Of a stretch of 32,000 bases of DNA, positions 4,059 to 27,409 are shown in pieces. The notes below the pieces were generated by a model that had not been told where the DNA came from, ran no database searches, and was given only the letters and a program-made list of their open reading frames with translations. Position numbers and translations under genes: made by a program. The stretch comes from Microcystis aeruginosa NIES-843. GTDB taxonomy: Bacteria > Cyanobacteriota > Cyanobacteriia > Cyanobacteriales > Microcystaceae. Positions within the stretch are counted from its first letter, which is position 1, and the number at the start of each line of letters is the position of its first letter. The stretch covers positions 3,360,001 to 3,392,000 of the forward strand of contig NC_010296.1 in assembly GCF_000010625.1 (NCBI RefSeq), in the 5' to 3' direction.

Positions 4059-5846
4059 ATGCGAACTCACTACTGTGGCGACCTTAGCGCGATCGAAATT
4101 GAAAAAAGTGTCACCCTCTTCGGTTGGGTCGATCGTCGTCGCGATCACGGTGGCGTTATTTTTATCGATCTACGGGATCGCAGTGGTATTGTCCAGATCG
4201 TCAGTGATCCCCAACGAACCCCCGCTTCCTATCCCATTGCTGAAACCGTCAGAAACGAGTATGTCCTCAAGGTGACGGGAACAGTCAGTCAAAGGCCTAC
4301 CGAATCCCTTAACCCGCGCATTGCCACCGGAGAAATCGAAATTTACGCCACTAGCATCGAGATTCTCAACGGGGTTACTAAACAACTGCCTTTTGTCGTC
4401 TCCAGTTCCGAAAGTGAATCGGTCCGGGAAGATGTGCGCTTGCGATACCGCTATCTAGACCTACGCCGGGAGCGTATGAGTCAGAATTTACAACTACGTC
4501 ACCAAGTTGTCAAGGAAATGCGCCGTTTTCTCGAAGATGAACAGCATTTTATCGAAGTGGAAACGCCAATTTTAACTCGATCGACTCCCGAAGGGGCGCG
4601 GGATTATCTGGTTCCTTCCCGTGTCAACCCTGGCCAATGGTACGCTTTACCCCAATCACCGCAACTATTTAAGCAATTATTAATGGTGTCGGGAATGGAT
4701 CGCTACTATCAAATCGCCCGCTGTTTCCGCGATGAAGATCTGCGCGCTGATCGTCAACCGGAATTTACTCAGTTGGATATGGAGATGAGTTTTCTCTCTT
4801 TACCTGAGATTTTAGCCCTAAATGAGGCTTTAATCGCTCATATCTTCAAAAAAGTCAAAAATATCGATATAAGCCTGCCCCTGCCCCGTTTAACCTATGC
4901 TGAGGCTATGGATCGCTATGGGATCGATCGCCCCGATACCCGTTTTGGCTTGGAATTGGTCAATGTGGCGGAGATTTTTGCCGATTCGGGATTTAAGGTG
5001 TTTTCAGGTGCGATCGCTAGTGGTGGGACGGTGAAAGTTTTACCGATTCCCAACGGTAACGAGGCGATTTCTAACGTCAGAATCAAACCGGGTGGGGATT
5101 TATTCAAAGAAGCCACCGATGCGGGGGCGAAGGGAATTGCCTATATCCGCGTGCGCGAGGACTACGATTTTGATACCATCGGTGCGATTAAAGATAACCT
5201 GACAGAGGCACAAAAACAGGCTTTAATCGAGAAGACTGGCGCAAAACCGGGGCATCTGCTCTTATTTGGGGCGGGAGATACCGATACAGTCAATAAATCC
5301 CTATCCCGCCTACGCCTAGTTTTAGGGGAACAATTGGGATTAATTGATCCGGAGAAAATCAACCTCCTCTGGGTGACGGATTTCCCGATGTTTGAATACA
5401 ACGCCGAGGAAAAACGCCTCGAAGCATTGCATCACCCCTTTACTGCCCCTAATCCCGAAGATTTAGAGGATCTAGCCCAGGCTCGCGCCCTAGCCTACGA
5501 TATGATTTTTAATGGTATTGAAATCGGTGGCGGCAGTTTGCGGATCTATCAACGGGAAGTACAGGAAAAAGTCTTCGCCACCATCGGTCTATCCCCAGAG
5601 GAAGCCTATAATAAATTCGGCTTTTTGTTAGAAGCTTTTGAATACGGAACCCCTCCCCACGGTGGCATCGCCTACGGTTTAGATCGCTTGGTGATGTTGT
5701 TAGCGGGAGAAGAATCGATTCGCGATGTGATTGCTTTCCCGAAAACCCAGCAAGCTAGTTGTTTACTCACTTCTGCACCTTCAACAGTGGCAGCGAAGCA
5801 ATTAAAGGAATTATCCGTTGCTTCTACCTACAAACCGCCATCCTAA
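4059..5846 (+). CDS. aspS: Aspartate--tRNA ligase (class IIb; probably the non-discriminating type, as usual in cyanobacteria)
   Basis: 595-aa [12 protein letters not shown]...[22 protein letters not shown] (OB anticodon-binding domain). It also has [39 protein letters not shown] (class II motifs 1-2) and GGGSLRI...[15 protein letters not shown] (motif 3). Confidence 0.97.
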
Positions 5847-5848
5847 GA

Positions 5849-5877
5849 TTAGGGTGGGCATTGCCCACCTAATTTTT
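5849..5877 (+). terminator. Rho-independent terminator downstream of aspS
   Basis: ttaGGTGGGCattGCCCACCtaattttt. This is a 7-bp GC-rich stem with a 3-nt loop, extendable by tta/taa with a bulge, followed by a T5 run. It starts 3 nt after the aspS stop. Confidence 0.65.
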
Positions 5878-5897: not shown

Positions 5898-6137
5898 TTA
5901 AATTCTTTTCTGCCCTCACTTCATCCTCTTTAGCAGTGGCTAAAAATTCCTAGAGTTTAGTTTTGGGAACTAGGGGAAAAGTGCAGGGTAAGCGCATCTT
6001 AACAATCCTTGACAATTGTTAAGCAAAAATCGACCAAATGGGTCGAGTTCGCCCCTACAAAATCGACCCGCCTAAGGGCGGGAAAGAAAAGAAAAAATAG
6101 GGAATGAGGGTAAAAAGGGAAAAAAAGGGGAAAAGGG
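5898..6137. repeat. Repeat R, copy 1: conserved structured 3' flank of the FGE-sulfatase-domain gene
   Basis: 5898-6097 is identical by eye to 10048-10247 (200 bp). A purine-rich tract (pyrimidine-rich on the gene strand) follows and differs only by small indels. It abuts the stop codon at 6138-6140. Confidence 0.85.
6025..6046 (-). terminator. Candidate intrinsic terminator inside repeat R (gene strand)
   Basis: On the minus strand: TCGACC-cattt-GGTCGA followed by TTTTTG. The stem is only 6 bp. The same sequence occurs in copy 2 at 10175-10196. Confidence 0.4.
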
Positions 6138-8756
6138 TTACAGAGTCCTCCCAGCACCGCACACCACCCGAAAACCGTGGTCGGAGCTGACGTTGACGCG
6201 GCGGTCGTGGTCGTTGCGGTAAGCAGAACGGCAGTTAGAAGGATAGAAGTACCAGGAACCGCCCCGCAGAGGAGAACGATTATCATCCCCATTTTCTATC
6301 CAGACACTGCCATCCGTCGGCGCATCCTTATAGTTATCGTGCCAAGTATCGGCACACCATTCCCAGACATTTCCGTGCATATCATAGAGTCCGAAAGCGT
6401 TGGGGGGAAATTTACCAACGGGGGTGGTTTCTTGACGATAAACACCTTTGGGTCCCTGAGCATAAATAGAGAAGTACCAGGAACCGCCCCGCAGAGGAGA
6501 ACGATTATCATCCCCATTTTCTATCCAGACACTGCCATCCGTCGGCGCATCCTTATAGTTATCGTGCCCAGTATCGGCGCACCATTCCCAGACATTTCCG
6601 TGCATATCATAGAGTCCGAAAGCGTTGGGGGGAAATTTACCAACGGGGGTGGTTTCTTGACGATAAACACCTTTGGGTCCCTGAGCATAAATAGAATTGC
6701 CGTCGTAGTTGGCTAAATCCGGGGTGATGGTTTCCCCGAAATAGAAGGGAGTGGTGGTTCCTGCACGACAGGCATATTCCCACTGCGCTTCCGAGGGGAG
6801 GCGATAGTCTCGTCCCGTCGCTTTCGAGAGTCGCATACAGAATTCCACTGCAGCGTACCAAGAGACTTGTTCAACGGGGCGATTATTGCCAGAGAACTTA
6901 GAAGGATTTAAGTCAAGGTCACATTCAATTTTTGGCAGGGAGGCCACTGCTTTCCACTGGGCCTGAGTGATGGGATATTTGCCCATAAAGAAGGCAGGAA
7001 CGGTCACTAGATGTTGGGGACGTTCGTTATCATTTCCTTGTCCATCGGGTGAACCCATCTTGAATTGTCCTGCTGGAATAGCGACCATTTCCAGGGTGAC
7101 ATCATTGCCCAAGTTTTCTGTAAAATACTGCGCTGGTTTCTTTTCCCGTTTGACTTCCTTGCCTCGACTATCGACGGTGACAGCTTGAAAATCAAAAAAT
7201 TGAGCATTACTAGGTAATTGACGACGGAGTTGGTTAAGTTGAGAATGATTGGGATAACGTTCCAACGCAGCATTAAGGTTCGATAAAGCTTCTTGCAATT
7301 GACCTGAATTCAGCAATTTAATGCTACGTTGGTAAAAAGATTCAGCACTCAATTGTTCTGACAATAAACCTTTAACTTGAGTAGCAAGCTGACGACTTTC
7401 TAGTTCTGCCAAACAGTGATGTAATTTATTAAAATACACTTCATCTGCTACGGTAACAACAGGTTTCATCGCTTTAATCGCTTGCTCTAAATTATTAGGA
7501 GGATTTATCCCCCGCAATCGCAACCAAGACTTAACGGAATAATCTAGCTGTTCTCTTGCCCAATTTTTATCAGGCAAAGCAGTTAAACTATCAGCTAAAT
7601 CTAATGCTAATTCAGGCATCCAAGCGGGGCGTTCATTTTCTAAAGCCTCATAAACCTGACGATAGCCAGAAACGATAGTCTTTAATAACTTAGGATCATC
7701 AATACCTCGCATTAAATCGGGTATAAGCTTAGGCAAAATGGGCGGGACATTGTGATGAATTAGGTAGTGAATATCGGCAATCCAACCGCCTACCAGTGAT
7801 TGACATTTGACTAAAAACTGACAGAGATATTCAAAATCCTTAGCCGTAACTTTATACGGTTGAGTCGCTAAATCACTGCTATCGATTCCCGCACTCTTGA
7901 GAGCTTCTTCGTCTTGTAAAATTTTCAAATTAAAGGCATTATCACTCCCATATTGCCGATCAATTTCCTCCAAAGATTTATTTAATTGTTTTGCCAGTTG
8001 CTCTCTTTTTTCTCGCCATTGTCTTGCTCTAATTTTAACAGATTCATAGACAACTTCTCGATAGGGAAGATTAGAAATAATCGATTGATAAAAATATTTT
8101 TGCTGTCCTTCTCCCCAATAGCCCACATTAAGATGAAGATAATCCCCATCAATTTGGGACTCTAAAATTAACATGGGTTCAGATTTTAATAAGGCAAAAA
8201 GACCTATAATAGCCGCACCACCATGATAGCGTTTACTATCCCATCCACCATCAATTAGTTCGATCGGTCTTTCGGTACTTTGAAAAGAATAATGTTGATT
8301 AAAAAATTCCCGTAATCCTTGCGCTAAACCAGTTTCAATATTAGGAAAACTTTTGTTGTTGCCACCAAATTGATCAAAATCGATAACAGGAGGTGCGGGA
8401 ATTATTCTCAGAGAAATTAAATTCTCATCATGATTAGCATTCAAAATTTGATCGGGAACAATTCTCAAAGGCCAGTTTTGAAATAATTTCTGATCTTGAA
8501 CAACTTGACGGGCAGTATTTCGTTGTTCTAGGGCTACTTTTAACTGAGTTTGACGGTTATCTTCAGCAAGTTCTTTCTGCAATTGCTTCTGTTTTTCAAA
8601 TTGCTCTCGCTGAAATTCCTGATTATTTAATTGTTGCCATTTTTGAAATTCCTGTCGCTTATCTTCCAGTTTTTCCGTTGCTTGTCTCGCCAATTGACTA
8701 TTAATTAAATTGATAACCCCATTAACAACATAAAATCCCATTATTTCAGCAGTCAT
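6138..8756 (-). CDS. 872-aa protein: uncharacterised coiled-coil/alpha-beta N-terminal region (~550 aa) + C-terminal FGE-sulfatase (SUMF1)-like domain with an internal 75-aa duplication
   Basis: The C-terminal third (about 6141-7100) reads LEMVAIPAGQFKMGS...RPQHLVTVPAFFMGKYPITQAQW...YRLPSEAQWEYACRAGTTTPFYFG...FGLYDMHGNVWEWCAD...RGGSW, the classic FGE-sulfatase domain pattern. The N-terminus has a Gln/Glu/Lys-rich coiled coil (residues ~20-90) and then sequence I cannot assign. A GGAG-containing RBS precedes the ATG. There is a 28-bp gap to the upstream peptidase gene. Confidence 0.85.
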   Translation of the reverse strand: MTAEIMGFYVVNGVINLINSQLARQATEKLEDKRQEFQKWQQLNNQEFQREQFEKQKQLQKELAEDNRQTQLKVALEQRNTARQVVQDQKLFQNWPLRIVPDQILNANHDENLISLRIIPAPPVIDFDQFGGNNKSFPNIETGLAQGLREFFNQHYSFQSTERPIELIDGGWDSKRYHGGAAIIGLFALLKSEPMLILESQIDGDYLHLNVGYWGEGQQKYFYQSIISNLPYREVVYESVKIRARQWREKREQLAKQLNKSLEEIDRQYGSDNAFNLKILQDEEALKSAGIDSSDLATQPYKVTAKDFEYLCQFLVKCQSLVGGWIADIHYLIHHNVPPILPKLIPDLMRGIDDPKLLKTIVSGYRQVYEALENERPAWMPELALDLADSLTALPDKNWAREQLDYSVKSWLRLRGINPPNNLEQAIKAMKPVVTVADEVYFNKLHHCLAELESRQLATQVKGLLSEQLSAESFYQRSIKLLNSGQLQEALSNLNAALERYPNHSQLNQLRRQLPSNAQFFDFQAVTVDSRGKEVKREKKPAQYFTENLGNDVTLEMVAIPAGQFKMGSPDGQGNDNERPQHLVTVPAFFMGKYPITQAQWKAVASLPKIECDLDLNPSKFSGNNRPVEQVSWYAAVEFCMRLSKATGRDYRLPSEAQWEYACRAGTTTPFYFGETITPDLANYDGNSIYAQGPKGVYRQETTPVGKFPPNAFGLYDMHGNVWEWCADTGHDNYKDAPTDGSVWIENGDDNRSPLRGGSWYFSIYAQGPKGVYRQETTPVGKFPPNAFGLYDMHGNVWEWCADTWHDNYKDAPTDGSVWIENGDDNRSPLRGGSWYFYPSNCRSAYRNDHDRRVNVSSDHGFRVVCGAGRTL
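6245..6694. repeat. Tandem in-frame 225-bp duplication (2 copies) inside the FGE-sulfatase-like domain
   Basis: 6245-6469 and 6470-6694 differ at 2 of 225 positions. Each encodes SIYAQGPKGVYRQETTPVGKFPPNAFGLYDMHGNVWEWCADT(W/G)HDNYKDAPTDGSVWIENGDDNRSPLRGGSWYF. Confidence 0.95.
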
Positions 8757-8784
8757 AAGATTTCCTCTCCCAGATCAACTTTGC

Positions 8785-9606
8785 TCAAGTAGTTTTAAAC
8801 GGCCAAGCTTCCGCCGGTTTATCGGTAATTAAAACCTCCCCGGTCAACTGCTCATTTGCCTGTTCAATTTGTGAACAAGACCAAAACTTTTCCTCATAGG
8901 GAAAATTAGAATCAATCCCCTGATAACCAATAACGTCACCATCGAGATTTCGGCTAACATCGGTTAAAGTAATCGCGTGCCAAGATTGAGAATCGGGATA
9001 GGAAATCGGGTCTAAATCGTGGGCATCTCCGACAAAAACCACGGGACGATTCTCATCTAAAGCATTAGCCAATTCCTGATGGTCAAAACTTGCCCAATGG
9101 GAGGGGATATCATAAGAACTCAAAATTTCTTGATAATCTTCAGGATTTAAAGCACCTCCTCGACCGGGATAGTCTATTTGCAGTTGGTCTGAGAAATTAT
9201 TCGTAATGTCGGGATGAAAACACTGGACAATATTTTCCATGGTTTCGTAACCACAGGTTGGCCCCGTTTGTAAATCTGCCAACAAATGCACATTTCCTAA
9301 CCCCGTAAACCCTAATTCTTGATGGGTAATATCATTAATTAAAGCTTCTGGCGATTCATAATGAAAATCCTGATGGCAGTGGGATACATCTTGCCAAGAC
9401 TCATCAGGTTGATAGTTGAAAGTGGCCTCCATAGTCTCATTTTGCCAATTCCAATACTCTTGATTCGGCATTTCCTGCCAACCGCTTTCGGTTTCCGGCA
9501 GATTCACCTCGGTAAAATCTGGGGAAACTAACTCCAAAGCTTGACTATCTAAAGGGTTAAGCAAATAGTCTTCTGGCGCAAAGCCTTGGCCATAGAGGTC
9601 ATTCAT
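8785..9606 (-). CDS. Papain-fold cysteine peptidase, C39-like (predicted), with an acidic/aromatic N-terminal extension
   Basis: 273-aa ORF. Candidate catalytic residues are Gln113...Cys118 (LQTGPTCGYETMENI), His210 (SWHAITLTD) and Asp232 (GIDSN). This is the Q-x4-C-G ... H-hydrophobic ... D order of C39-like peptidases. A GGAGG RBS lies 7 nt before the ATG. The first ~110 aa are rich in Glu, Asp, Trp and Gln and appear domain-free. Confidence 0.6.
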   Translation of the reverse strand: MNDLYGQGFAPEDYLLNPLDSQALELVSPDFTEVNLPETESGWQEMPNQEYWNWQNETMEATFNYQPDESWQDVSHCHQDFHYESPEALINDITHQELGFTGLGNVHLLADLQTGPTCGYETMENIVQCFHPDITNNFSDQLQIDYPGRGGALNPEDYQEILSSYDIPSHWASFDHQELANALDENRPVVFVGDAHDLDPISYPDSQSWHAITLTDVSRNLDGDVIGYQGIDSNFPYEEKFWSCSQIEQANEQLTGEVLITDKPAEAWPFKTT

Positions 9607-9868
9607 GGTCGCCTCCGCTCCTTGACTGGGGCTATTTTTTAACCTAGAGAATCGGCATCACTAAGTATTTATACTTCGATGATACTCCCAACCCATGAAA
9701 GTCTAGTCTGGACGTTGATAAAAGTTAACTGATGTTGACAGCCTCGGATTTTGGGCGCAAGGCTTCACTGGTGTTAACTTAACGGTTGAGATTCCCTGTT
9801 TTTTTGATGGGTAACAATAAACCTCTCGCATAATTGATTTTTGAGGATTCAAAAACGTCAAAAAGGCG

Positions 9869-9934
9869 GATTAACTGGCAGAAAATCTCTAAATAAACCA
9901 TTTAATTGATTATTACTCATTCTTAATTCTCCTG
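9869..9934. repeat. Repeat U, copy 1: conserved 66-bp block upstream of the peptidase operon
   Basis: gattaactggcagaaaatctctaaataaaccatttaattgattattactcattcttaattctcctg equals 11686-11751 with one mismatch. On the gene strand it reads AGGAGAattaagaATGAGTAATAATCAA... Confidence 0.85.
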
Positions 9935-9977
9935 TCTCCTGTCTCCTGTCTCCTAACGACCGGCTCCTGACTCCTAA
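9929..9977. repeat. STRR-type heptamer array (CTCCTGT/CTCCTGA/CTCCTAA)
   Basis: ctcctgt x3, then ctcctaa, a 7-nt interruption, ctcctga and ctcctaa. The period is 7. Confidence 0.8.
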
Positions 9978-10047
9978 CCCCACCAACAAACTTTTTCAGC
10001 AAACCCTAGTTAATTATTTTCAGCTAGTTGACTAACAACCCATGCTC

Positions 10048-10291
10048 TTAAATTCTTTTCTGCCCTCACTTCATCCTCTTTAGCAGTGGCTAAAAATTCC
10101 TAGAGTTTAGTTTTGGGAACTAGGGGAAAAGTGCAGGGTAAGCGCATCTTAACAATCCTTGACAATTGTTAAGCAAAAATCGACCAAATGGGTCGAGTTC
10201 GCCCCTACAAAATCGACCCGCCTAAGGGCGGGAAAGAAAAGAAAAAAGAAAAAATAGGGAATGAGGGTAAAAGGGGAAAAAGGAAAAAGGG
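10048..10291. repeat. Repeat R, copy 2: conserved structured 3' flank of the TIR-FGE-sulfatase gene
   Basis: Offset of 4150 bp from copy 1. 10048-10247 is identical to 5898-6097. It abuts the stop codon at 10292-10294. Confidence 0.85.
10175..10196 (-). terminator. Candidate intrinsic terminator inside repeat R copy 2 (gene strand)
   Basis: Same TCGACC-cattt-GGTCGA-TTTTT sequence as 6025-6046. Confidence 0.4.
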
Positions 10292-11650
10292 TTAGAGAGT
10301 TCTCCCGAAAACGCAGGCTACCCGAAAACCGTAATTGTTGATGCGGTTGACGCGGCGGAAGTAGTAGTCGTAGCGAATCGCGGAACGGCAGTAATTAGGA
10401 TTGTAGCCCCAGGAACCGCCCCGCAGAGGAGAACGATTATCATTACCATTTTCTATCCAGACACTGCCATCCGTCGGCGCACCGTCATAGTTATCGTGCC
10501 AAGTATCGGCGCACCACTCCCGGACATTGCCGTGCATATCGTACAGTCCAAAGGCGTTTGGGGGAAATTGTCCCACGCGAGTTGTTTCGTTTCGATATTC
10601 TCCGTTCGGTTCATCGGCGTAGGTATTACTGGCATTGTAGTTAGCCAATTCCCCCGTAATGGTTTCCCCAAAGTAAAACGGGGTGGTGGTTCCAGCACGA
10701 CAAGCGTATTCCCATTCCGCTTCACTCGGTAGTCGGTATTCCCGAACCGTTAGTTTTGATAATCTCGCACAGAATTCGATCGCATCGTACCAGTTGACTT
10801 GTTCCACGGGACGGCGATCGCTATCGGGACGGTCTTTAAAATAGGCTGGCTTGAAATCAAGGTCTTGTTTAACTTTTAAATCCGTGCGAGAGGCGATCGC
10901 TTTCCACTGGGCCTGGGTGATGGGGTATTTACCCATAAAGAAGGGTGGGACAGTTACTTCATGTTGTGGTCTTTCCCTTCTAAATCCTTCCCAATTAAAT
11001 TTTTTAACCAGTCTTTCGATTTCCTCATCTTCTGTTCCCATCAGGAAAGTTCCCCCCGGAATGGCGACCATTTCTAAGGTGATGCCTTTGCCCAGATCTT
11101 CCCTGAAATATTGGGACTGTTTCGACTCTTTTCTAATTTGCTCACCCTTCGCATTTACTCCCACCACCTCAAAGTTAAATACTGATAACAGTTGTTTTGG
11201 CTCTTCCGGTTCAAGCTTGAACTGATAGCCAATTGCTCTTTCTAGTTGCTCAAATCCGTCTTCTTCCCAATAATCAAGCCGGTGAATATCTCGCAGATTC
11301 AAGCTAACTTCTGCAAGTCGCAGATCAGGAATTTCGCATTCTTCTAACCTCATGGGAATAAAAAAAATTGTCCCCGGTAGCATCTCTCCCAAGGTATCAA
11401 GTGCAATCCTCAACTCCCGTTGGATGTATCCCTGCTTATTAGCTGATTTCGCTGACAGACAGGCGAGAAAAATCTGACTAGCTTTAATCGCTTTCGGAAT
11501 TTCATCTCGCCAAATTTGACCCGGAATCAGGTCTTTTTTATCCAACCAAGGTTTATATCCCGCTTGCTTAAGGCGGTCATACAGTGCCAAAACTGCTGGT
11601 TTGTCCTCACTGGCATGGGCCAAGAAAATTTGGATCTCTGACTTTTTCAT
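10292..11650 (-). CDS. TIR domain + FGE-sulfatase (SUMF1)-like domain fusion protein
   Basis: The N-terminus IQIFLAHASEDKPAVLALYDRLKQAGYKPWLDKKDLIPGQIWRDEI...IFLACLSAKSANKQGYIQRELRIAL is a bacterial TIR (TIR_2-type) pattern with candidate catalytic Glu79. The C-terminal part (about 10295-11090) is a paralogue of the 6138-8756 C-terminus (LEMVAIPGGTFLMG...RPQHEVTVPPFFMGKYPITQAQW...YRLPSEAEWEYACRAGTTTPFYFG...RGGSW). Confidence 0.9.
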   Translation of the reverse strand: MKKSEIQIFLAHASEDKPAVLALYDRLKQAGYKPWLDKKDLIPGQIWRDEIPKAIKASQIFLACLSAKSANKQGYIQRELRIALDTLGEMLPGTIFFIPMRLEECEIPDLRLAEVSLNLRDIHRLDYWEEDGFEQLERAIGYQFKLEPEEPKQLLSVFNFEVVGVNAKGEQIRKESKQSQYFREDLGKGITLEMVAIPGGTFLMGTEDEEIERLVKKFNWEGFRRERPQHEVTVPPFFMGKYPITQAQWKAIASRTDLKVKQDLDFKPAYFKDRPDSDRRPVEQVNWYDAIEFCARLSKLTVREYRLPSEAEWEYACRAGTTTPFYFGETITGELANYNASNTYADEPNGEYRNETTRVGQFPPNAFGLYDMHGNVREWCADTWHDNYDGAPTDGSVWIENGNDNRSPLRGGSWGYNPNYCRSAIRYDYYFRRVNRINNYGFRVACVFGRTL

Positions 11651-11685
11651 AACTTTTTCTTATGACCACAAGTAGGGGAGAGCCA

Positions 11686-11751
11686 GATTAACTGGCATAA
11701 AATCTCTAAATAAACCATTTAATTGATTATTACTCATTCTTAATTCTCCTG
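11686..11751. repeat. Repeat U, copy 2: conserved 66-bp block upstream of the TIR gene
   Basis: gattaactggcataaaatctctaaataaaccatttaattgattattactcattcttaattctcctg. See 9869-9934. Confidence 0.85.
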
Positions 11752-11892
11752 ACTACTGTCTCCTGCCTCCTGACTACTGTCTCCTGACTACTGCCTACTG
11801 TCTCCTGACTACTGCCTACTGTCTCCTGACTACTGTCTCCTGTCTCGGAGTCTCCTGACTACTGCCTACTGTCTCCTGACTACTGCCTACTG
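11746..11892. repeat. STRR-type heptamer array (CTCCTGA/CTACTGC/CTACTGT), ~21 units
   Basis: ctcctga ctactgt ctcctgc ctcctga ctactgt ctcctga ctactgc ctactgt ... The period is 7, with one short interruption (ctcggag). Confidence 0.85.
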
Positions 11893-12032
11893 AATCCTCA
11901 CCAACCACGACAATTTGGGATTTTTACAGCAAGTCCACTTTCTCACTTTCCCCACCCGTGACCTTTTTCCGTTAGATTATAAATGGATACAAAACTTAAC
12001 ATTTTATCCAGAATCTACCGAGAGGGCAGACC

Positions 12033-13493
12033 GTGCGGCCAGATACCCTAGAAAATAACCAGCATTCAGCCGATAATTCGCTAGTTCCCGAAGTTATCGC
12101 ATTTAAACCCGAAATTGAGCCAGAGGAACCCGAATACTCGCCAAAACCGACAAAAACCAACTCTTGGCTATCGGGAGGAAAGGGTTTATTTATCGGTGTG
12201 GGATTGGGGGTTTTATTGACCCTGGGGGCGACTCGTTTCGCTAATCGACCCCAAACAGCCCAAAACCCCAATACTCAGCCCGTAGCGGCAAAAAATGAAG
12301 CACCAGCACAAACAGTAACCACCACTAGGGTAGAATTTACTCCCGTGGCCCGCACCCTGAAAGCGACTGGAAGCGTGGCAGCCGATGAATTAATCCCGAT
12401 TCTTTCCCAAGCGACGGGACTACAAATCAAAGAAATCTTTGTGGATGAAGGGGATAGGGTCAGCCAAGGTCAAATTTTGGCTCGTCTCGATGATACCGTC
12501 CTACAAGCGCAATTAACCCAAGCACAGGCAAATGTCGCCCAATCCCGGGCGCGTTTGGCAGAATTGCAAGCGGGTAGCCGTAAAGAGGAGATCGCTGGAG
12601 CTAAACAAACTATTCAACGCATAAAAGCCGAAATTAGTCAAGCTCAATCGGATTGGGATTTGGCCAAAAAACGCGTCCAGAGAAACCAAAGTTTAGAAGC
12701 GGAAGGAGCGATCGCCCGGGATCGTCTCGATGAAGTCCTCAATGAAGAAAGAAAGCAAGCGGCGATCGTACAACAGACCCAATCCCGTTTAGGAGAAGCA
12801 GAGCAGCAACTGGCACAATTGCAAGCAGGCAATCGTCCTGAAGTGATAGCCCAAGCTACAGCCCAATTAGCGGAAGCTCAAAGCCGTTTAGCCATTGTTA
12901 AAGCCCAATTAAACGAGACGCGCCTGATTTCCCCGGTCAGTGGCAAAATTGCCGAAAGAAATGGCCGCATCGGGGACACCACCAACGGTCAAAATGCTCT
13001 CTTTAAAATCATCGAAAACGGCCGTTTAGAGCTAAGATTGCGGGTTCCTGAGAATCAATTGCCCTTAATCCGCGTCGGAGCGCCCGTTACTATCACTTCC
13101 GATGCTAATACCAGTCTGAAACTATCGGGACAGGTGCGCGAAATTAATCCCATCGTCGATGAGGCATCCCGTCAAGCAACGGTTAAAGTCGATTTAACCG
13201 ACAATACAGGGTTAAAACCGGGGATGTTTTTACGAGGTGCGATCGTGACGAATACTAGCAACAGTTTAACCGTCCCCATGACCGCAGTTTTACCCCAAAA
13301 AGATAATCAAGCTCTAGTTTATTTAGTTGAACCTGATAACACCGTTACCGCCAAAACTGTGCAATTAGGTCAAATTATGCCGAATAATCGCGTGGAAATT
13401 CTCACCGGTTTACAAGCGGGCGATCGCATTGTGGTCAAAGGGGCAGCCTATCTCGGTGATGGCGACAAAATTACAGCAATCAGTGATCAGTAA
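12033..13493 (+). CDS. Efflux RND transporter periplasmic adaptor subunit (HlyD/MFP family)
   Basis: 486-aa ORF from GTG 12033. It has an N-terminal TM anchor (GLFIGVGLGVLLTLGA), a lipoyl-like motif (I.EIFVDEGDRVSQGQILARLDD), long coiled-coil hairpin repeats (LAELQAG / LAQLQAG) and beta-barrel motifs (ISPVSGKIAERN...). The exact start is uncertain. Confidence 0.85.
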   Translation: MRPDTLENNQHSADNSLVPEVIAFKPEIEPEEPEYSPKPTKTNSWLSGGKGLFIGVGLGVLLTLGATRFANRPQTAQNPNTQPVAAKNEAPAQTVTTTRVEFTPVARTLKATGSVAADELIPILSQATGLQIKEIFVDEGDRVSQGQILARLDDTVLQAQLTQAQANVAQSRARLAELQAGSRKEEIAGAKQTIQRIKAEISQAQSDWDLAKKRVQRNQSLEAEGAIARDRLDEVLNEERKQAAIVQQTQSRLGEAEQQLAQLQAGNRPEVIAQATAQLAEAQSRLAIVKAQLNETRLISPVSGKIAERNGRIGDTTNGQNALFKIIENGRLELRLRVPENQLPLIRVGAPVTITSDANTSLKLSGQVREINPIVDEASRQATVKVDLTDNTGLKPGMFLRGAIVTNTSNSLTVPMTAVLPQKDNQALVYLVEPDNTVTAKTVQLGQIMPNNRVEILTGLQAGDRIVVKGAAYLGDGDKITAISDQ

Positions 13494-13543
13494 TCAGTGA
13501 TCAGTAAACAGTAATCAGTAAACAGTAATCAGTAATCAGTGAT
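13474..13543. repeat. STRR-type heptamer array (CAGTGAT/CAGTAAT/CAGTAAA), 10 units
   Basis: cagcaat cagtgat cagtaat cagtgat cagtaaa cagtaat cagtaaa cagtaat cagtaat cagtgat. It spans the last codons and the stop of the adaptor gene. Confidence 0.9.
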
Positions 13544-13561
13544 CGGTAGCGGGGCAAACGG

Positions 13562-13942
13562 ATGGAGAGTAAAGTTTATGATAAAGCTTATAAATTTGCC
13601 ATTAGGATTGTTAAAGGCTATAAATATTTGTGTGAGACTAAACAAGAATATGTTTTGTCAAAACAGCTATTAAGGAGTGGCACTTCAATCGGGGCTAACA
13701 TTGCCGAGGCTAATGGAGCTATTTCTCAAGCTGATTTTCGAGCTAAAATGTCAATAGCTTATAAGGAATGTCTAGAAACAAAGTATTGGCTGTCTCTATT
13801 GAAAGACACGAATTACATAGAGGAAAGAGCCTTTCAAAGTATCAATGATGATGCGGAGGAAATTGGTAAAATGCTTTGGGCTATTCTAAAAACCTGCCAA
13901 GAAAATACCAAAAACCAAAAACTGATAACTGATAACCGGTAA
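13562..13942 (+). CDS. Four-helix-bundle protein (23S rRNA intervening-sequence protein / Avd-like family)
   Basis: 126-aa ORF with Y.KAYKFAIRIVK...LSKQLLRSGTSIGANIAEANGA.S..DF..K..IA.KE..ET.YWL.LL. The R-S-x-x-S-I-x-A-N-I-A-E motif is diagnostic for this family. Confidence 0.85.
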   Translation: MESKVYDKAYKFAIRIVKGYKYLCETKQEYVLSKQLLRSGTSIGANIAEANGAISQADFRAKMSIAYKECLETKYWLSLLKDTNYIEERAFQSINDDAEEIGKMLWAILKTCQENTKNQKLITDNR

Positions 13943-14010
13943 CTGAAAACTCACATCTGGTAACTGATAACTTACCCACTGATAACTGATAACTGATAAC
14001 TGATAACTGA
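13922..14010. repeat. STRR-type heptamer array (CTGATAA and variants)
   Basis: A degenerate part runs 13922-13978. Then ctgataa x4 + ctga occupies 13979-14010. It overlaps the last codons of the four-helix-bundle gene and ends 4 nt before the RND start codon. Its reverse complement (ATCAGTT)n differs by one base per unit from the left-hand array (ATCAGTA)n. Confidence 0.9.
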
Positions 14011-20929: not shown

Positions 20930-21078
20930 TTTTTTTTAGTTTTTAACCCTTTCTCTCTCCTATTATAGGCATCCTAAAAGGGTTTTTTCGCCCAAATAGT
21001 GAAGAAAAACCGAATATCTCCGGCTGCTTCTTTGATTTTTTTTCTTTGAAAACTTCTCAAAAAAAAAGGAGTAATCCC

Positions 21079-21107
21079 TTGACTTGGGCGGCGGCTTCGG
21101 TTATACT
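21079..21107 (+). promoter_or_regulatory. Sigma70-type promoter candidate (repeat unit 1)
   Basis: TTGACT, a 17-nt spacer, then TATACT. It is preceded by an A-rich tract (ctcaaaaaaaaagg). A perfect TATAAT follows 5 nt downstream (21113-21118). Confidence 0.5.
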
Positions 21108-21263
21108 TTTCTTATAATGGGAATCCGTGCATTTTTCAATAGACTCCAACACTCCATTATATATAAAGTCTTATAAAAATATTATGGCAAAAAGCCCTGA
21201 AAAAAGCAAGCCTCTTTGATTTTTTTTCTTTGAAAACTTCTCAAAAAAAAGAGGAGTAATCCC

Positions 21264-21292
21264 TTGACTTGGGCGGCGGCTTCGGTTATACT
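21264..21292 (+). promoter_or_regulatory. Sigma70-type promoter candidate (repeat unit 2)
   Basis: Same TTGACT-17-TATACT arrangement as unit 1, followed by TATAAT. Confidence 0.5.
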
Positions 21293-21523
21293 TTTCTTAT
21301 AATGGGAATCCGTGCATTTTTCAATAGACTCCAACACTCCATTATATATAAAGTCTTATAAAAATATTATGGCAAAAAGCCGTGAAAAAAGCAAGCAAAA
21401 TTTTGCCGACAATTGTTAAAAAAGTCGGGCTAGTTTTCCTTACAGGATGATATGACTTTAAACCGGTTATTTCTCGGTTATCCAAGCGGTAAACTTTGAT
21501 TGATGATAAATTGGGGACGTAAG

Positions 21524-22812: not shown

Positions 22813-25800
22813 TCATGACCAAATCTTCTTAGTCCGATAATTTTTTGTACCAATCCCATCACACAAACCCCTATCCTCCTCCCTAACATCAGAATTAGGA
22901 TTGTGCAAATAAACCCGCACCCAATCGCAACTACGCCCCATTAAAGCATCTAAATTCAATAAATTCGAGTCTGTTTCTACCTTCCAGAGTTTGATAGTGT
23001 TGTCCCAACTACCGCTCACCAAAGTCTTGCCGTTGGGACTAAAATTAACGCTTCTGACACGGCTATTATGCCCATGGAGGGTACGGATTTCTTGGCGTTT
23101 TTCTACATTCCAGAGTTTGATAGTTTTGTCATCACTACCGCTCACCAAAGTCTTGCCGTTAGGACTAAAATTAACGCTTCTGACAGGACCATCATGCCCC
23201 TTGAAGGTGTGGATTTCTTGGCGTTTTTCTACATCCCAGAGTTTGATAGTCTTATCATAACTACCGCTCACCAAAGTCTCGCCGTTGGGACTAAAATTAA
23301 CGCTTCTGACACGGTCATGATGCCCCTCGAAGGTGTGGATTTCTTCGCCTGTCTCTACATTCCAGAGTGTGATAGTCTTGTTATCACTACCGCTCACCAA
23401 AGTCTTGCCGTCGGGACTAAAATTAACGCTTCTGACACGGCCATCATGCCCCTGGAAGCCATGGAAGGTGGGGATTTCCTTGCCTGTTTTTACATTCCAG
23501 AGTTTGATAGTACCGTCCCAACTACCGCTCACCAAAGTCTCGCCGTTGGGACTAAAATTAACGCTTCTGACAAGGCCACCATGCCCCTTGAGGGTGTGGA
23601 TTTTTTTGCCTGTTTTTACATCCCAGAGTATGATAGTCTTGTCATCACTACCGCTCACCAAAGTCTTGCCGTCGCGACTAAAATTAACGCTTCTGACAGG
23701 GTAATCATGCCCATGGAGGGTGCGGATTTCTTCGCCTGTTTTTACATCCCAGAGCTTGATAGTCCCGTCATCACTACCGCTCACCAAAGTCTTGCCCTCG
23801 TCAGGATTAAACTCAACGCTATTGACAAGGTCATCATGCCCCTTGAGGGTTTGGACTATTTCTACATTCCAGAGTTTGATAGTCCCGTCATCACTACCGC
23901 TCACCAAAGTCTTGCCCTCGTCAGGACTAAAATTAACGCTCCAGACAGGGCCTTCATGCCCCTTGAGGGTGAGGATTTCTTGGCCTGTTGACTCATTCCA
24001 GAGTTTGATGGTGTTGTCCCAACTACCGCTCACCAAAGTCTTGCCGTCGCGACTAAAATTAACGCTTCTGACACGGCTATTATGCCCCTTGAGGGTGCGG
24101 ATTTCTTGGGGTTTTTCTACATTCCAGAGTTTGATAGTCTTGTCACCACTACCGCTCACCAAAGTCTTACCGTCGTGACTAAAATTAACGCTATAGACAG
24201 GGCCACCATGCCCCTTGAGGGTACGGATTTCTTGGCCTGTTTCTACATTCCAGAGTTTGATAGTCTTGTCACCACTACCGCTCACCAAAGTCTTGCCGTT
24301 GCGACTAAAATTAACGCTATAGACAGGGCCTTCATGCACCTTGAGGGTGCGGATTTCTTGGGGTTTTTCTACATCCCAGAGTTTGATAGTTTTGTCATCA
24401 CTACCGCTCACCAAAGTCTTGCCGTCACGACTAAAATTAACGCTATAGACAGTGCCACCATGCCCCTTGAGGGTACGGATTTCTTGGCCTGTTTCTACAT
24501 TCCAGAGTTTGATAGTTTTGTCATCACTACCGCTCACCAAAGTCTTGCCGTCACGACTAAAATTAACGCTATAGACAGGGCCACCATGCCCCTTGAGGGT
24601 ACGGATTTCTTGGCCTGTTTCTACATTCCAGAGTTTGATAGTTTTGTCATCACTACCGCTCACCAAAGTCTTGCCGTCACGACTAAAATTAACGCTATGG
24701 ACATAGCTACCATGCCCTTCTAAGCGATTGCGTTCACTTTTCCGGTTGAGAAGTTCCTGTAAGGCATTCATCACCTCCTTGTCGGATGCCTGCTGCTTTT
24801 GTAGAGTTTTTCCTGCCTTAATTGCTTCAACGAAAGCATCTAATTCTTTTCCTCTATCAAACAAAGACAAGGAAGAAAACCCGCGAGCATTTGCCAGATT
24901 GAGTTCCGCTTGTTGTGTTTGTTTCCAAGCCATCAAACCCAATCCCGTACTAACCACCACCGCCACCAAGGAACCCGCCGCAATCCCCCAAGCGGTTCTA
25001 ATTTCGCGCCGCCTGCGGGCTGCTTCGGCTTGTTTTATCCGTTCTCGCTCCTGGAGACTCTGCCTGATAAAATCCTGTTCACTTTGGCTGATATCTTCTG
25101 GGCGTTGCCTCAATTGTTCTTCTGCCTCTGCCAACGCCGCCCCGCGCAACCATGAGCCTTCATCCCCTTGCGTCTTCTGCCATTGCCCCATCGCCCCCCG
25201 CAAACGCTCTTGCCAAGCGCGAAAAACCCTGTCTGTATCCATCCAGCCCCGCAATTCCCCCCAATTGCGAATCAGTGCTTCATGCACCACTTCCACCGTC
25301 TCCACCTGTGCCTCTTCACTGCGACTGGTGACAACTAAACGCGCATCCGCCAATTGTTTCACCAGCGCCCAATTTACCGCCCCCAATTCCGCTTTTGTCG
25401 CCAGCCGCCGCGTATCTTCTGTGCCTTCTCCTGGGCGCACCAATTGGATGAAAATGCGCCGCATCTGTTCCCGTTGCGCCTCACTCAGCTTGTCATATTC
25501 TTCATTGGCATGGCGGGCCAAAGCACCCTGCACTTGGCCAATTTCTGTATATGCCAGATGGGTTAACTGTTGGCCCTGTCGCCGCTGCCACAATTCCGTT
25601 AAGGCAAACTCTAGTAATGGCAAATTCCCCGGCTCACTCTCCACATCATCGAGGATGCGCTCCACCAGTCCCGCTTCAAATGTCACCCCCAATTTTTGCG
25701 CCGGTTTTTCAATAACTTCTGTGAGTTCTTCTCGGTTCATCGGCCCCAATTTCAAATCAGTATTTTGTAAGACATCGGCAAAGGGACGATAGGAAAGAGC

Positions 25801-26514
25801 ATTCCCCAAGAAATCCGCCCGCATAGTTAATACCAACACCATTCCTACCCTTTCAAAGGGGAATGTAGTTAATTTATCGAGAAAATTACGGCGGATTGTT
25901 TCATCAGGACAGAGGGTATAAAGTTCCTCAAATTGGTCGGCAATTAGCAGTACCCGTTCACTGGGATAATTGTGTTGGATTTGGGCAAAAACATCAGCTA
26001 AAGGAATGTCGCCATCACGCAAATAATTGGCTAACTGACGCGCTTGGGCGAGGCAGTCTGTCTCATTTAAATTAGTTGTATAAAGGGGAACTAATGCCAA
26101 AGCTAGGGCATGAAAAGGGTCAGAACCGGGACGAAAATGGGTAAACTGCCAGTGACCTTCTTGTTGCAATTTAGGGACTAATCCCGCAAAAACCACCGAG
26201 GATTTACCACTTCCCGACGCACCTAATAGGGGGATAAAATTACGGGTTTGGGTTGCCTGAAATAGGGTTTTAATAAAGCTTTTGCGCCCAAAAAAGTATT
26301 CTGCATCTCCTGGCCCAAAATGAAACAAGCCACGATAGGGACAGGGCAGTTTATCATCGGCAACATCGGCAGAATCAGCAGGGGCTATTCTTGCTTCTTC
26401 TCGATAATAGTAATTGGTAATCGTGATGGTTGCATTGCCAGTCCCAGAGGTAGCAGCATATTGAGCTTCTGTAATATTTTGTTGAATTTCGCTTGGTTCT
26501 GACATATCAACCAT
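22813..26514 (-). CDS. STAND/NLR-like P-loop ATPase + TM segment + 14 WD40 repeats, with a short N-terminal Gly/Asn/Thr-rich motif
   Basis: 1233-aa ORF. It has CPYRGLFHFGPGDAEYFFGRKSF followed by Walker A GASGSGKSS (26197-26223) and Walker B-like VLLIADQFEELY. From memory this matches the clade Aravind and colleagues called nSTAND1. A hydrophobic 24-mer TAWGIAAGSLVAVVVSTGLGLMAW lies at 24925-24996 after RRRREIR. From residue 600 there are 14 x ~42-aa WD40 units (GH..V.SVNFS.DGKTLVSGS.DKTIKLW). The C-terminal tail CDWVRVYL..NP......DR.LCDGI is common in cyanobacterial WD40 proteins. Confidence 0.9.
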   Translation of the reverse strand: MVDMSEPSEIQQNITEAQYAATSGTGNATITITNYYYREEARIAPADSADVADDKLPCPYRGLFHFGPGDAEYFFGRKSFIKTLFQATQTRNFIPLLGASGSGKSSVVFAGLVPKLQQEGHWQFTHFRPGSDPFHALALALVPLYTTNLNETDCLAQARQLANYLRDGDIPLADVFAQIQHNYPSERVLLIADQFEELYTLCPDETIRRNFLDKLTTFPFERVGMVLVLTMRADFLGNALSYRPFADVLQNTDLKLGPMNREELTEVIEKPAQKLGVTFEAGLVERILDDVESEPGNLPLLEFALTELWQRRQGQQLTHLAYTEIGQVQGALARHANEEYDKLSEAQREQMRRIFIQLVRPGEGTEDTRRLATKAELGAVNWALVKQLADARLVVTSRSEEAQVETVEVVHEALIRNWGELRGWMDTDRVFRAWQERLRGAMGQWQKTQGDEGSWLRGAALAEAEEQLRQRPEDISQSEQDFIRQSLQERERIKQAEAARRRREIRTAWGIAAGSLVAVVVSTGLGLMAWKQTQQAELNLANARGFSSLSLFDRGKELDAFVEAIKAGKTLQKQQASDKEVMNALQELLNRKSERNRLEGHGSYVHSVNFSRDGKTLVSGSDDKTIKLWNVETGQEIRTLKGHGGPVYSVNFSRDGKTLVSGSDDKTIKLWNVETGQEIRTLKGHGGTVYSVNFSRDGKTLVSGSDDKTIKLWDVEKPQEIRTLKVHEGPVYSVNFSRNGKTLVSGSGDKTIKLWNVETGQEIRTLKGHGGPVYSVNFSHDGKTLVSGSGDKTIKLWNVEKPQEIRTLKGHNSRVRSVNFSRDGKTLVSGSWDNTIKLWNESTGQEILTLKGHEGPVWSVNFSPDEGKTLVSGSDDGTIKLWNVEIVQTLKGHDDLVNSVEFNPDEGKTLVSGSDDGTIKLWDVKTGEEIRTLHGHDYPVRSVNFSRDGKTLVSGSDDKTIILWDVKTGKKIHTLKGHGGLVRSVNFSPNGETLVSGSWDGTIKLWNVKTGKEIPTFHGFQGHDGRVRSVNFSPDGKTLVSGSDNKTITLWNVETGEEIHTFEGHHDRVRSVNFSPNGETLVSGSYDKTIKLWDVEKRQEIHTFKGHDGPVRSVNFSPNGKTLVSGSDDKTIKLWNVEKRQEIRTLHGHNSRVRSVNFSPNGKTLVSGSWDNTIKLWKVETDSNLLNLDALMGRSCDWVRVYLHNPNSDVREEDRGLCDGIGTKNYRTKKIWS
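22945..24717. repeat. 126-bp coding tandem repeats (WD40 units), several nearly identical at DNA level
   Basis: The units at 24454-24579 and 24580-24705 are almost base-for-base identical. There are 14 units overall. They also create the long spurious antisense ORFs in the track (23068-23991, 24082-24723 and others). Confidence 0.9.
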
Positions 26515-26536
26515 CCTGATTAATTAAAATACAGTC

Positions 26537-26941
26537 TCAGTCATCCTTAGATGTGCCATGCTCGGTGATGCCGCTAATACTAGCATTACCCGTGCCAGAG
26601 GTAGCAGCATATTTAACATTACTGATATTTTGGGTGATAATTTGTTGTCCACCGGGTTGTTCTTGGAGCTTGTCTAGTAAATCTTGGGCTAATTTAGTGA
26701 TTTCATTATCTTTATCAACCCCCGCTTCGACAATTTTATCTTTTAACAAACCTTCAGCTTTCTTGATATCCTCTGGTTTTGCCTCTACCATTGCCTGTGC
26801 TAAAGCATCATTAGCAAACTTACGCTTAATCAAGGTTTTCAAACCTTGATATGTATCTTTAACGCCTTTTTCCGCCGTATCTTTAGCCGCAGCAACCGCA
26901 CCGGCAGTCAAGGCGGCGATAATCAGAGAAACTGGTTCCAT
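26537..26941 (-). CDS. Small helical protein with a hydrophobic N-terminal helix and a C-terminal motif shared with the downstream STAND ATPase (candidate Bell/HeLo-like effector)
   Basis: 134-aa ORF. Residues 3-19 (PVSLIIAALTAGAVAAA) are hydrophobic and Ala/Gly-rich. The middle is a Lys/Asp/Glu/Ala/Leu-rich sequence of helical character. The tail is QNISNVKYAATSGTGNASISGIT. The stop is 22 bp upstream of the STAND start on the same strand. Confidence 0.7.
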   Translation of the reverse strand: MEPVSLIIAALTAGAVAAAKDTAEKGVKDTYQGLKTLIKRKFANDALAQAMVEAKPEDIKKAEGLLKDKIVEAGVDKDNEITKLAQDLLDKLQEQPGGQQIITQNISNVKYAATSGTGNASISGITEHGTSKDD

Positions 26942-27274: not shown

Positions 27275-27409
27275 TTTTTGCCGCAAACCCTATATAAGGA
27301 TCGTAGCTGAAAAAGCCAAACTACGGTTTTCCCTGTGGATGGGGTTTATCAGTTATCAGATTTGAGTTTTCAATTCACTGTTTACTGAACAATGAAAAAA
27401 ACTCCCTGA

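Follow-up and report, generated by a model that had tools for sequence, protein, structure and literature searches.

The remote targets of cyanobacterial diversity-generating retroelements (DGRs) carry C-terminal C-type-lectin/FGE (formylglycine-generating enzyme) domains behind N-terminal parts such as kinases and caspases, and duplication with dispersal has been discussed as their origin (Vallota-Eastman et al. 2020, PMC7517822). Duplication, recombination and debris resembling miniature inverted-repeat transposable elements (MITEs) have been described at the DGR loci of another multicellular bacterium, and duplication with recombination is stated there as a proposed route to new DGR targets (Dore et al. 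2024, PMC10907252). Related conflict systems with FGS domains have also been reported (Kaur et al. 2020, PMC7159879), and FGE/C-type-lectin "sensors" joined to TIR, caspase or NTPase parts are proposed antigen-sensor or conflict systems of colonial and filamentous bacteria. The origin of new DGR targets has so far been treated in general terms, and a concrete population-level example in bloom-forming Microcystis is provided by the locus between aspS and hlyD in the 32,000-nucleotide stretch of Microcystis aeruginosa NIES-843 analyzed here (the window, in whose numbering all positions are given). This locus contains two minus-strand genes, A and B, each ending in an FGE domain and each flanked by a copy of a 3' repeat, R, and of a 5' repeat, U. 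In our judgment it is best explained, with good probability, as a recombining tandem array of remote DGR-type targets that forms a strain-variable islet between aspS and hlyD.

The two genes share with the described remote targets a C-terminal FGE-sulfatase domain with the variable region at its very 3' end, variable codons of the NNC form with differences concentrated at template adenines, modular N termini (TIR here, caspase on the DGR-proximal target), a reverse transcriptase (RT) gene that is not adjacent, paralogues produced by duplication and recombination, and the presence of MITEs and transposases at the loci. However, different from those targets, 2 to 3 genes stand here in tandem with a conserved junction, in a fixed aspS-hlyD slot with strain-dependent occupancy; one member, gene A, is frozen population-wide, and the comparison with RT and the template repeat (TR) comes from related contigs. 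In a limited check of the literature, we did not find the aspS-hlyD locus described. The new elements are, in particular, the tandem array at a fixed Microcystis slot, the population-level polymorphism of its cassettes, the contrast between an active and a frozen member, and the nature of the conserved "modules," which are scars.

The first-pass annotation of this DNA had recognized two consecutive minus-strand cassettes bracketed by R and U, and both the layout and the repeat identities were confirmed by our analysis. The R copies at 5898 to 6097 (copy B) and 10048 to 10247 (copy A) are identical over 200 of 200 nt, with 0 mismatches, and the window contains a 38-nt core of R at exactly two places, where 0 are expected from shuffles. 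The U copies at 9869 to 9934 (copy B) and 11686 to 11751 (copy A, ending 35 nt upstream of the gene A start codon) agree at 65 of 66 nt, the single mismatch being G/T at 9881/11698, and the match extends through the heptamer array to 107 nt at 91.6% identity. All these elements lie on the minus strand, where the first cassette is made up of a heptamer array similar to short tandemly repeated repetitive (STRR) sequences (11745 to 11898), U, gene A (10292 to 11650), a pyrimidine-rich linker (10248 to 10291) and R, and the second one of heptamers (9928 to 9975), U, 260 nt of other sequence, orf273 (8785 to 9606), gene B (6138 to 8756), a pyrimidine-rich linker between the gene B stop codon and R (6098 to 6137), and R. 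According to Pfam, gene A encodes 452 amino acids with TIR_2 and FGE-sulfatase domains (PF03781, E = 3.5e-56), and gene B encodes 872 amino acids, with an N-terminal region of unknown nature, TPR and an FGE-sulfatase domain of the C-type-lectin fold (PF03781, E = 2e-74).

The bodies of genes A and B are old paralogues, 60 to 75% identical. The sliding comparison of the two cassettes gave an identity of 60 to 75% in the 5' part of the FGE domain, 90 to 95% in the ~140 nt preceding the gene tip, just upstream of the variable region, 62 to 75% in the tip itself, which is the variable region, ~85%, interrupted by indels, in the pyrimidine-rich linker that follows the stop codon, and 100% across R. 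Weaker homology, recognized partly by direct reading, runs ~30 nt past the distal end of R and also past the heptamer array. Thus, the noncoding flanks are indeed more conserved than the FGE (FGS) domains between them, as had been claimed, with R at 100% and the domains at 60 to 95% overall. Since the order B-junction-A was also found in the independent contigs L001 and L061+L071, an assembly artifact can be excluded for the arrangement. Rfam, searched at gathering thresholds over the whole window, returned no match, and R and U therefore correspond to no described RNA family.

A component that had escaped the first-pass annotation, as had a 225-bp duplication in gene B, is the DGR-type diversification of the gene tips. 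Contig L001, from a sister strain reached through an exact look-up of the aspartyl-tRNA synthetase protein, is ~99% identical to the window, and its gene B is likewise ~99% identical to that of the window except for the last ~100 nt, where 17 codons differ, all of them of the NNC form. Codon differences of this form are the signature of a DGR, in which an AAC-rich template repeat is copied with adenine-specific errors. In gene B of the window, the stretch homologous to a TR occupies positions ~6139 to 6269 and the hypervariable codons positions ~6177 to 6251, so that the variable codons fall within the last 38 codons, at the 3' end of the FGE domain. A complete DGR, consisting of Pepco, a Peptidase_C14-FGE target, bAvd, RT and TR, was recognized in contig L077, which we reached through Avd homologues; its TR, of 131 nt, immediately follows the RT gene and can be aligned with gene B over 131 nt at 81.7% identity.

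The substitutions were counted over the 122-nt core of the L077 TR, which contains 32 adenines and 90 other bases. The variable region of L077 itself differs from its own TR at 13 adenines and at 0 other positions, and gene B of the window differs from the same TR at 16 adenines and 6 other positions. Between gene B of the window and gene B of L001, 27 differences in 122 nt are divided into 22 at TR adenines and 5 elsewhere, and a comparable partition (23 and 4) was obtained for the A' genes of L017 and L062, A' being a second, divergent TIR-FGE gene. Furthermore, the variable region of the aspS-adjacent gene, be it B or A', is different in every strain compared. These distributions show that adenine-directed DGR hypermutation has left its mark on a large part of the divergence in the 3'-terminal coding sequence of the FGE domain, and the flank is better conserved than the gene tip mainly because of this hypermutation and not because of conservation of the flank. 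Gene B can thus be regarded as a putative remote DGR target. Pfam scans of the open reading frames (ORFs) detected no RT or bAvd gene in the 32-kb window; bAvd, RT and TR are present in related Microcystis-type contigs, and DGR activity may be presumed in the window strain.

Other sequence features connect the 3' end of gene B with DGR-proximal targets. The GC-rich end GGTTTTCGGGTGGTGTGCGGTGCTGGGAG and the GC hairpin located ~55 nt after the stop codon are shared with them, and this end could represent a candidate end like that of the initiation of mutagenic homing (IMH) site, with its downstream hairpin. The linker of gene B is nearly identical to that of the DGR target gene in L077, and it differs from the linker of gene A by 2 indels and ~4 substitutions. 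When PLSDB was searched with R, the 1 match obtained was a degenerate DGR on plasmid p1FD4 of Microcystis aeruginosa FD4, on which a pyrimidine linker and GC hairpin, the same as in the window, separate an FGE gene from avd, and an insertion sequence has taken the place of the TR and RT; the search of PLSDB with avd returned no further plasmid.

Gene A behaves differently from the aspS-adjacent gene. Its variable region, GYNPTYCRSAIRYDYYFRRVNRINNY (~10331 to 10408), does not vary among the other strains compared, from which the window differs at one base, with N in place of T. We could notice that gene A shares a "type 2" scaffold (CRSAIR ... VFGRTL) with gene B of L071 and gene A' of L069, from which it differs at 16 adenine sites versus 3 other sites and at 10 versus 5 sites, respectively. 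From this pattern of substitutions, gene A looks like a DGR target of the past, or one that has become fixed, its variable region being frozen.

The anatomy of R does not correspond to that of a single element. Read from the stop codon of the gene, R consists of a GC hairpin, ~12 nt that could not be assigned, a MITE fragment and the end of a Uma2 gene. The hairpin, CCCGCC-CTTA-GGCGGG, is located at 6067 to 6082 in copy B and at 10217 to 10232 in copy A, and it is followed by a T-run; the sequence after it reads TCGATTTT. The linker and hairpin together are homologous to the spacer between target and avd in DGR loci (p1FD4 and L077 to L079), and the homology ends directly after the hairpin, where the DGR loci run on into avd; ~40 of the 200 nt of R, corresponding to the hairpin part, are common to the DGR loci. 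The 67-nt MITE fragment (5986 to 6052 and 10136 to 10202) derives from a high-copy dispersed Microcystis MITE and is composed of 28 nt of the left end, an internal deletion and a 39-nt inner segment, truncated on the right, that includes a second hairpin (6030 to 6046 in copy B and 10180 to 10196 in copy A). The remaining 88 nt (5898 to 5985 in copy B) translate as the C terminus of a Uma2-family endonuclease with an in-frame stop, reading TFPLVPKTKL, stop, EFLATAKEDEVRAEKNL; in copy A, the pseudogene runs on through the spacer to RAWVVSQLAENN and its stop codon, and intact Uma2 genes (PF05685) are found at the corresponding site in L017. In the terminator scan, the two hairpins were scored as terminator-like for the strand of the genes, and they would act as terminators. 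The MITE deletion, the truncation and the Uma2 fragment are common to both copies of R, which are therefore duplicates of one sequence and not the product of independent insertions.

The distribution of these parts was examined in genomes and metagenomes. In a scan of one genome per species, a 22-mer from R (at 5986) identified 54 loci, nearly all in Microcystis, and the context of R was found in 3 of the 54, which carry the aspS-hlyD locus at 95 to 99% identity over kilobases: L017 (Microcystis ichthyoblabe FBCC-A1114), L026 (a metagenome-assembled genome of Microcystis novacekii) and L038 (Microcystis sp. LSC13-02). At the other loci, the MITE repeat is mostly longer, in some cases truncated, and its left flanks are unrelated. 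An FGE domain occurs within ~160 nt of the MITE end in the 3 R-bearing loci; of the remaining 51 MITE loci, just 1 has an FGE domain, at ~4 kb from the MITE end, and it follows that the generic MITE core is not associated with FGE genes. The metagenome scan with the R-specific MITE-deletion junction returned 16 contigs (L061 to L076), and this junction, in the 16 contigs as in the 3 genomes, is always at the aspS-hlyD locus. L061 and L071 are stretches of one contig, and the comparison set comprises 22 related contigs, 20 of them independent.

On this basis, R is a locus-specific composite scar and not a mobile module. The idea that R and U are spreading as mobile modules, put forward in the first-pass annotation, is contradicted by the confinement of the R junction to one locus, and the alternative that R is a generic high-copy repeat applies to its 67-nt MITE core, which has no association with FGE genes, and not to R as a whole. 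Like the Microcystis MITEs, positions 5986 to 6052 and 10136 to 10202 correspond to two parts of a high-copy repeat, its left end and a segment from its interior; different from them, the element in R is internally deleted and right-truncated, and therefore immobile, and the 200-nt R exists at a single locus. A striking "conserved noncoding module" can thus be a terminator/MITE/pseudogene scar, which invites caution before repeats are called mobile or functional. The 22-nt MITE end GGGTAAGCGCATCTTAACAATC occurs exactly, with unrelated sequence after it, in L010, L047, L032, L055 and L036 (Scytonema, Brasilonema, Stigonema and Coleofasciculaceae), and the terminal motif may belong to a widespread superfamily of insertion sequences and MITEs. 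As a separate observation, a 222-nt MITE-like repeat lies at 27072 to 27293 of the window; it has copies of 80 to 94% identity in the Microcystis loci L018, L021 and L024, a partial 71-nt match in L037, and identical copies at the same site within U of both cassettes of L017.

As for U, each TIR-FGE gene of L017 is preceded by it, and U in turn comes directly after an intact Uma2 gene in that strain; this position, which is the same as that upstream of gene A, identifies it as the native 5' region of TIR-FGE genes. Cassette B keeps U and continues with a different 260 nt, orf273 and gene B. A weak promoter-like site, GAGACA-18-AATAAT, was recognized in U copy B (9938 to 9909), with its counterpart in copy A at 11755 to 11726; the number of such sites in the region was not above the shuffled expectation in the promoter scan. 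It is possible to hypothesize that U is a promoter/5' untranslated region. Between the cassettes, the R of A, the spacer (9976 to 10047), the heptamers and the U of B form the junction J. The spacer contains the last codons and the stop of the Uma2 pseudogene and a short dispersed repeat of ~40 nt. The latter piece (9978 to 10016, just after the pseudogene stop) has an inverted copy at 2536 to 2575 and is also found in the Microcystis loci L009, L016, L026 and L031.

The comparison among strains disclosed a series of alleles at the slot beside aspS. The aspS gene (4059 to 5846, plus strand, tRNA-synt_2/GAD in Pfam), followed by a terminator-like hairpin at 5852 to 5870 in the terminator scan, is the conserved anchor on one side of the variable locus, and its region is collinear with Microcystis loci at 95 to 99%; on the other side, the anchor in many, though not all, strains is the hlyD-family membrane-fusion gene (12033 to 13493, plus strand). 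Type I alleles have the order aspS-R-A (L038, L026, L064 to L067, L070, L074 and L075), with exactly one R joining the aspS flank to gene A in L038, L064 to L067, L070, L074 and L075. Type II alleles (L017, L062 and L076) have the order aspS-A'-J-A, with the A' stop codon abutting the last 15 nt of R, and type II' alleles the order aspS-R-A'-J-A (L069, and L072, which starts within A'). Type III, aspS-R-B-orf273-J-A, is the allele of the window, of L001 and of L061+L071, and also of L073, which starts just upstream of the U of B and continues with the same J, gene A and hlyD. The slot beside aspS is thus the variable one, being empty or occupied by A' or by B with orf273, and gene A is always present; the far flank varies as well, being made up of hlyD directly, of a Uma2 remnant with a MITE or of two intact Uma2 genes. 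The prediction that the middle segment varies among strains was accordingly borne out, and the locus is not invariant, as its slot content differs from strain to strain.

The bodies of gene B in type III alleles are 98 to 99% identical in 3 strains, yet they bear 3 different 3' ends. In gene B of the window, a type 1 variable region is followed by a DGR-proximal-type linker and by R in intact form. In the L001 copy, which lacks linker and hairpin, the reading frame continues from a type 1 variable region into a MITE fragment of greater length, and the L071 copy has a type 2 variable region and a DGR-proximal-type linker closest to those of the L078 and p1FD4 targets. In L071, which comes from a bloom metagenome, a 2-kb insertion (1565 to 3603 of L071), carrying a gene for a REP (repetitive extragenic palindromic)-associated tyrosine transposase and REP-like GC-rich palindromes, splits R copy B at the edge of the MITE fragment. 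R is therefore dispensable, given that type II lacks it, that L061 and L073 have lost part of it, and that it is cut short in L001 and split in L071. In the type II strains L017, L062 and L076, the end of A' has no linker or hairpin, and the variable regions are completely different; these A' genes are themselves mosaics, with 44 to 100% identity in 50-nt windows, and the diversification of the variable region may have come before or after the loss of the hairpin.

Mosaic structure is apparent also between the units of one genome. In the window, the 200-nt tract of 100% identity borders on ~85% identity on the linker side and on weak homology, ~45 to 60%, past its distal end. The linker of gene B is almost that of the DGR-proximal target of L077 and unlike that of A, and from the hairpin onward the sequence is identical to the R of A, so that the 100% tract has its edge where a crossover at the hairpin, the sole sequence that all three partners have in common, would place it. 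In L017, the 5' flanks of A and A' show 100% identity for ~400 nt, a stretch made up of U, the 222-nt MITE within U and the first ~90 coding nt, and the identity then falls to 50 to 60% in the TIR domain and returns to 90 to 98% in the FGE domain. The haplotypes of R show 0 to 3% differences among strains, that of the window being the population consensus and occurring at both positions. A variant, TTA at columns 17, 18 and 20, occupies the aspS-adjacent position in L069 and the internal position in L001, this shared polymorphism being read from the haplotype table of a small sample without a formal test, and the two R copies of one strain are identical in the window, differ at 1 position in L061/L071 and differ by ~3.5 to 6% in L069 and L001.

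The features of tandem paralogues under recombination or gene conversion, namely mosaic tracts, copy-number variants at repeats and polymorphisms shared between positions, are all present at the locus. The claim that the pattern goes beyond a simple old duplication stands, and gene conversion or recombination is its best explanation, in view of the mosaic profiles and the shared polymorphisms. As in other tandem arrays of paralogues shaped by unequal crossing-over and gene conversion, the identity tracts have sharp edges, polymorphisms are shared between positions, the copy number varies, and exactly one repeat is left after the loss of a unit. Different from such arrays, the homogenized parts are here mostly noncoding scars, and the coding parts are kept different in part by a mutagenic retroelement.

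The composition of R and U, the adenine-specific substitutions, the series of alleles and the mosaics are shown by the sequences, and they can be accommodated in a single history, in which we propose the following order of events and mechanism of recombination. The repeated unit would comprise the 3' end of Uma2, the spacer, the heptamers, U, the gene, the pyrimidine linker, the terminator hairpin and the MITE scar; R and U would be the intergenic ends of this unit, and R a passive scar that supplies two terminator-like hairpins. The ancestral unit, Uma2-U-TIR/FGE gene-linker-hairpin, may have originated from the 3' part of a DGR-proximal target and its downstream spacer, and it would then have gained the MITE, which truncated the neighboring Uma2 gene, before being duplicated in tandem. 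General homologous recombination, by unequal crossing-over and gene conversion, would have operated between units and also between them and the DGR-proximal target gene at its separate genomic site. In this process, exchange between two R or two J copies would delete units and give type I alleles, gene bodies could be swapped between U and the conserved FGE tail, with B and orf273 in place of A', and short converted tracts would leave segments homogenized or swapped with sharp boundaries. A DGR elsewhere in the genome would keep rewriting the variable region of the gene in the aspS-adjacent slot. The 3' end of gene B in the window would then be a chimera, in which a variable-region end and linker of the DGR-proximal type are joined at the hairpin to an R of the A type, and this chimeric end ties the remote target to the DGR-proximal target gene.

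Some points weigh against this history. The action of a DGR on gene B is deduced from between-strain differences and from a heterologous TR, with which gene B has 6 non-adenine mismatches. Identical R copies need no recent event, as R varies by 0 to 3% in the population and the window carries the consensus haplotype, and whole-islet allelic replacement through the aspS and hlyD flanks could produce the differences among strains with no exchange inside R or U. No crossover was observed directly among the sequences compared, which are mostly metagenome contigs, some of them possibly chimeric (e.g., L063).

If such replacement were the only process, the R copies would be identical simply as a result of low population diversity. 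The occurrence of the window haplotype, the population consensus, at both positions in other strains and the 95 to 99% conservation of the aspS and hlyD flanks agree with this explanation, which nevertheless leaves unaccounted for the 100% tracts between paralogues of the same genome (200 nt in the window and ~400 nt in L017), the three 3' modules on near-identical B bodies and the polymorphisms shared by both R positions, and which we regard as very improbable. Somewhat less improbable, albeit still unlikely, is that R is maintained by purifying selection as a cis element for DGR homing, a terminator or a small RNA. DGR-proximal and remote targets alike have conserved the GC hairpin and linker, the two hairpins are terminator-like, and 3' cis features have been proposed to activate remote targets (PMC7517822). 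However, outside the ~40 of 200 nt common to DGR loci, the rest of R is MITE and pseudogene debris; type II alleles have no linker, hairpin or R and nonetheless possess strongly diversified variable regions; a 46- to 58-nt deletion that removes the hairpin (L061 and L073) and the 2-kb insertion of L071 are tolerated; the between-strain divergence of 0 to 3% is no lower than that of neighboring DNA; and no Rfam match exists. Purifying selection is plausible for the 16-nt hairpin and T-run as a terminator and implausible for the remainder of R.

A dedicated system of cassette exchange, with R/U or the whole of J serving as specialized recombination sites in the manner of integron attC or a shufflon and with circles inserted beside aspS, would account for the differences in the aspS slot among strains and for the single-cassette alleles, which keep exactly one R, as excision between two R copies would leave; R holds, moreover, three hairpins. 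Similarly, integron cassette arrays show a variable number and identity of cassettes at a fixed site and repeated junction sequences. However, different from integrons, the locus has no integrase and no attI/attC-type sites, its breakpoints fall also inside genes, in the TIR and FGE coding sequences, as well as at the hairpin, and its junction is a composite of terminator, MITE fragment and pseudogene. Neither the 32-kb window nor the islets of the strains examined contain a gene for an integrase or site-specific recombinase, according to Pfam scans of the window ORFs of at least 110 amino acids and to the ORF lists of L017 and part of L071, and the sole transposase seen in the islet ORF lists is the REP-associated tyrosine transposase of the L071 insertion. 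R, furthermore, is a scar of three unrelated sequences that is absent, deleted, truncated or interrupted in various alleles, and general homologous recombination on a 200-nt repeat suffices. What had been suggested as cassette exchange through homologous ends thus holds for the variation of cassettes and for recombination, and a dedicated system, which was not demonstrated, appears to us quite improbable. The least credible explanation, which we reject as highly improbable, is that R is a MITE-like mobile element inserted independently downstream of both FGE genes. In its favor, 67 nt of R belong to a high-copy Microcystis MITE family, and by our own reading the ends of R show a weak, low-complexity, pyrimidine-rich inverted similarity (~15 of 22 positions); it is opposed by the MITE deletion, right-hand truncation, Uma2 fragment and hairpin that both copies share, by the presence of the R-specific junction at the aspS-hlyD locus only, by the lower-identity homology past both ends of R and by the absence of target-site duplications at R.

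A recombining tandem array of remote DGR-type targets remains, in our opinion, the reading to be preferred, and a more speculative extension of it concerns the 3' module (FGE tail, variable region, linker and hairpin), which together with J might act as portable homology that re-assorts N-terminal effector parts; we hold this to be unlikely. TIR, the peptidase-associated B and caspase would, on the same doubtful assumption, be put onto a DGR-diversified sensor at an "active" aspS slot, and displaced cassettes such as A might, again with low probability, be archived with a frozen variable region. If this were true, portable homology would amount to a two-tier diversification, with effector shuffling by recombination and sensor mutagenesis by a retroelement, and why DGR activity should depend on position would be a further biological question.

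The FGE domain of gene B in the window presents an additional peculiarity, a 225-bp in-frame tandem duplication (6245 to 6694, minus strand) in 2 copies, with mismatches at 6344 and 6354. It copies the 75 amino acids upstream of the variable region together with the first two codons of the latter, ending 6 nt into the variable region, and its junctions display just 2 to 4 nt of microhomology. The duplication is missing from the sister contigs L001 and L071 and is thus specific to the window strain.

The gene upstream of B, orf273, is probably cotranscribed with it. No sequence-family match was found for it in Pfam or NCBIfam. In the alignment with its 7 homologues, Cys117 and His209 are invariant; the N-terminal 115 residues are disordered, and residues 116 to 265 were modeled by AlphaFold2 with a pLDDT of ~80. 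The Foldseek matches of this model include PeiR, staphopain and C39 domains at a modest significance (E of ~1e-3), and a putative papain/C39-type cysteine peptidase is plausible, in keeping with the label of peptidase gene that the first-pass annotation had attached to it. A pair formed by orf273 and a B-like N-terminal region also occurs in a metagenome-assembled genome of Xenococcus sp. (L084, JBFRWH010001119.1, 448 to 2283), at ~71% nucleotide identity, and the retention of the pair in a different cyanobacterial genus suggests that orf273 and the B-like gene may constitute a functional two-gene module.

Next to the islet, a plus-strand gene of the 23S rRNA intervening sequence protein (IVP) family (PF05635) is located at 13562 to 13942, between hlyD and acrB. 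It was considered as a possible Avd and rejected, as it matches PF05635 and not the bAvd family and has no adjacent RT. This gene is bracketed by heptamer arrays (13474 to 13548 and 13920 to 14010), and it is an insertion/deletion polymorphism, being present in L061 and L073 and missing in L038, L064, L067 and L072.

Elsewhere in the window, a second conflict-type locus (22813 to 26941, minus strand) encodes an nSTAND1 NTPase with 14 WD40 repeats, which correspond to 126-bp tandem repeats at 22971 to 24696, and is preceded by a small gene with a HetE-N domain. A 185-bp intergenic tandem duplication (21029 to 21396, 2 copies, 98% identical) was noticed upstream of a PIN-domain gene, and tandem repeats of 33/66 nt at 31833 to 32000 run off the end of the window.

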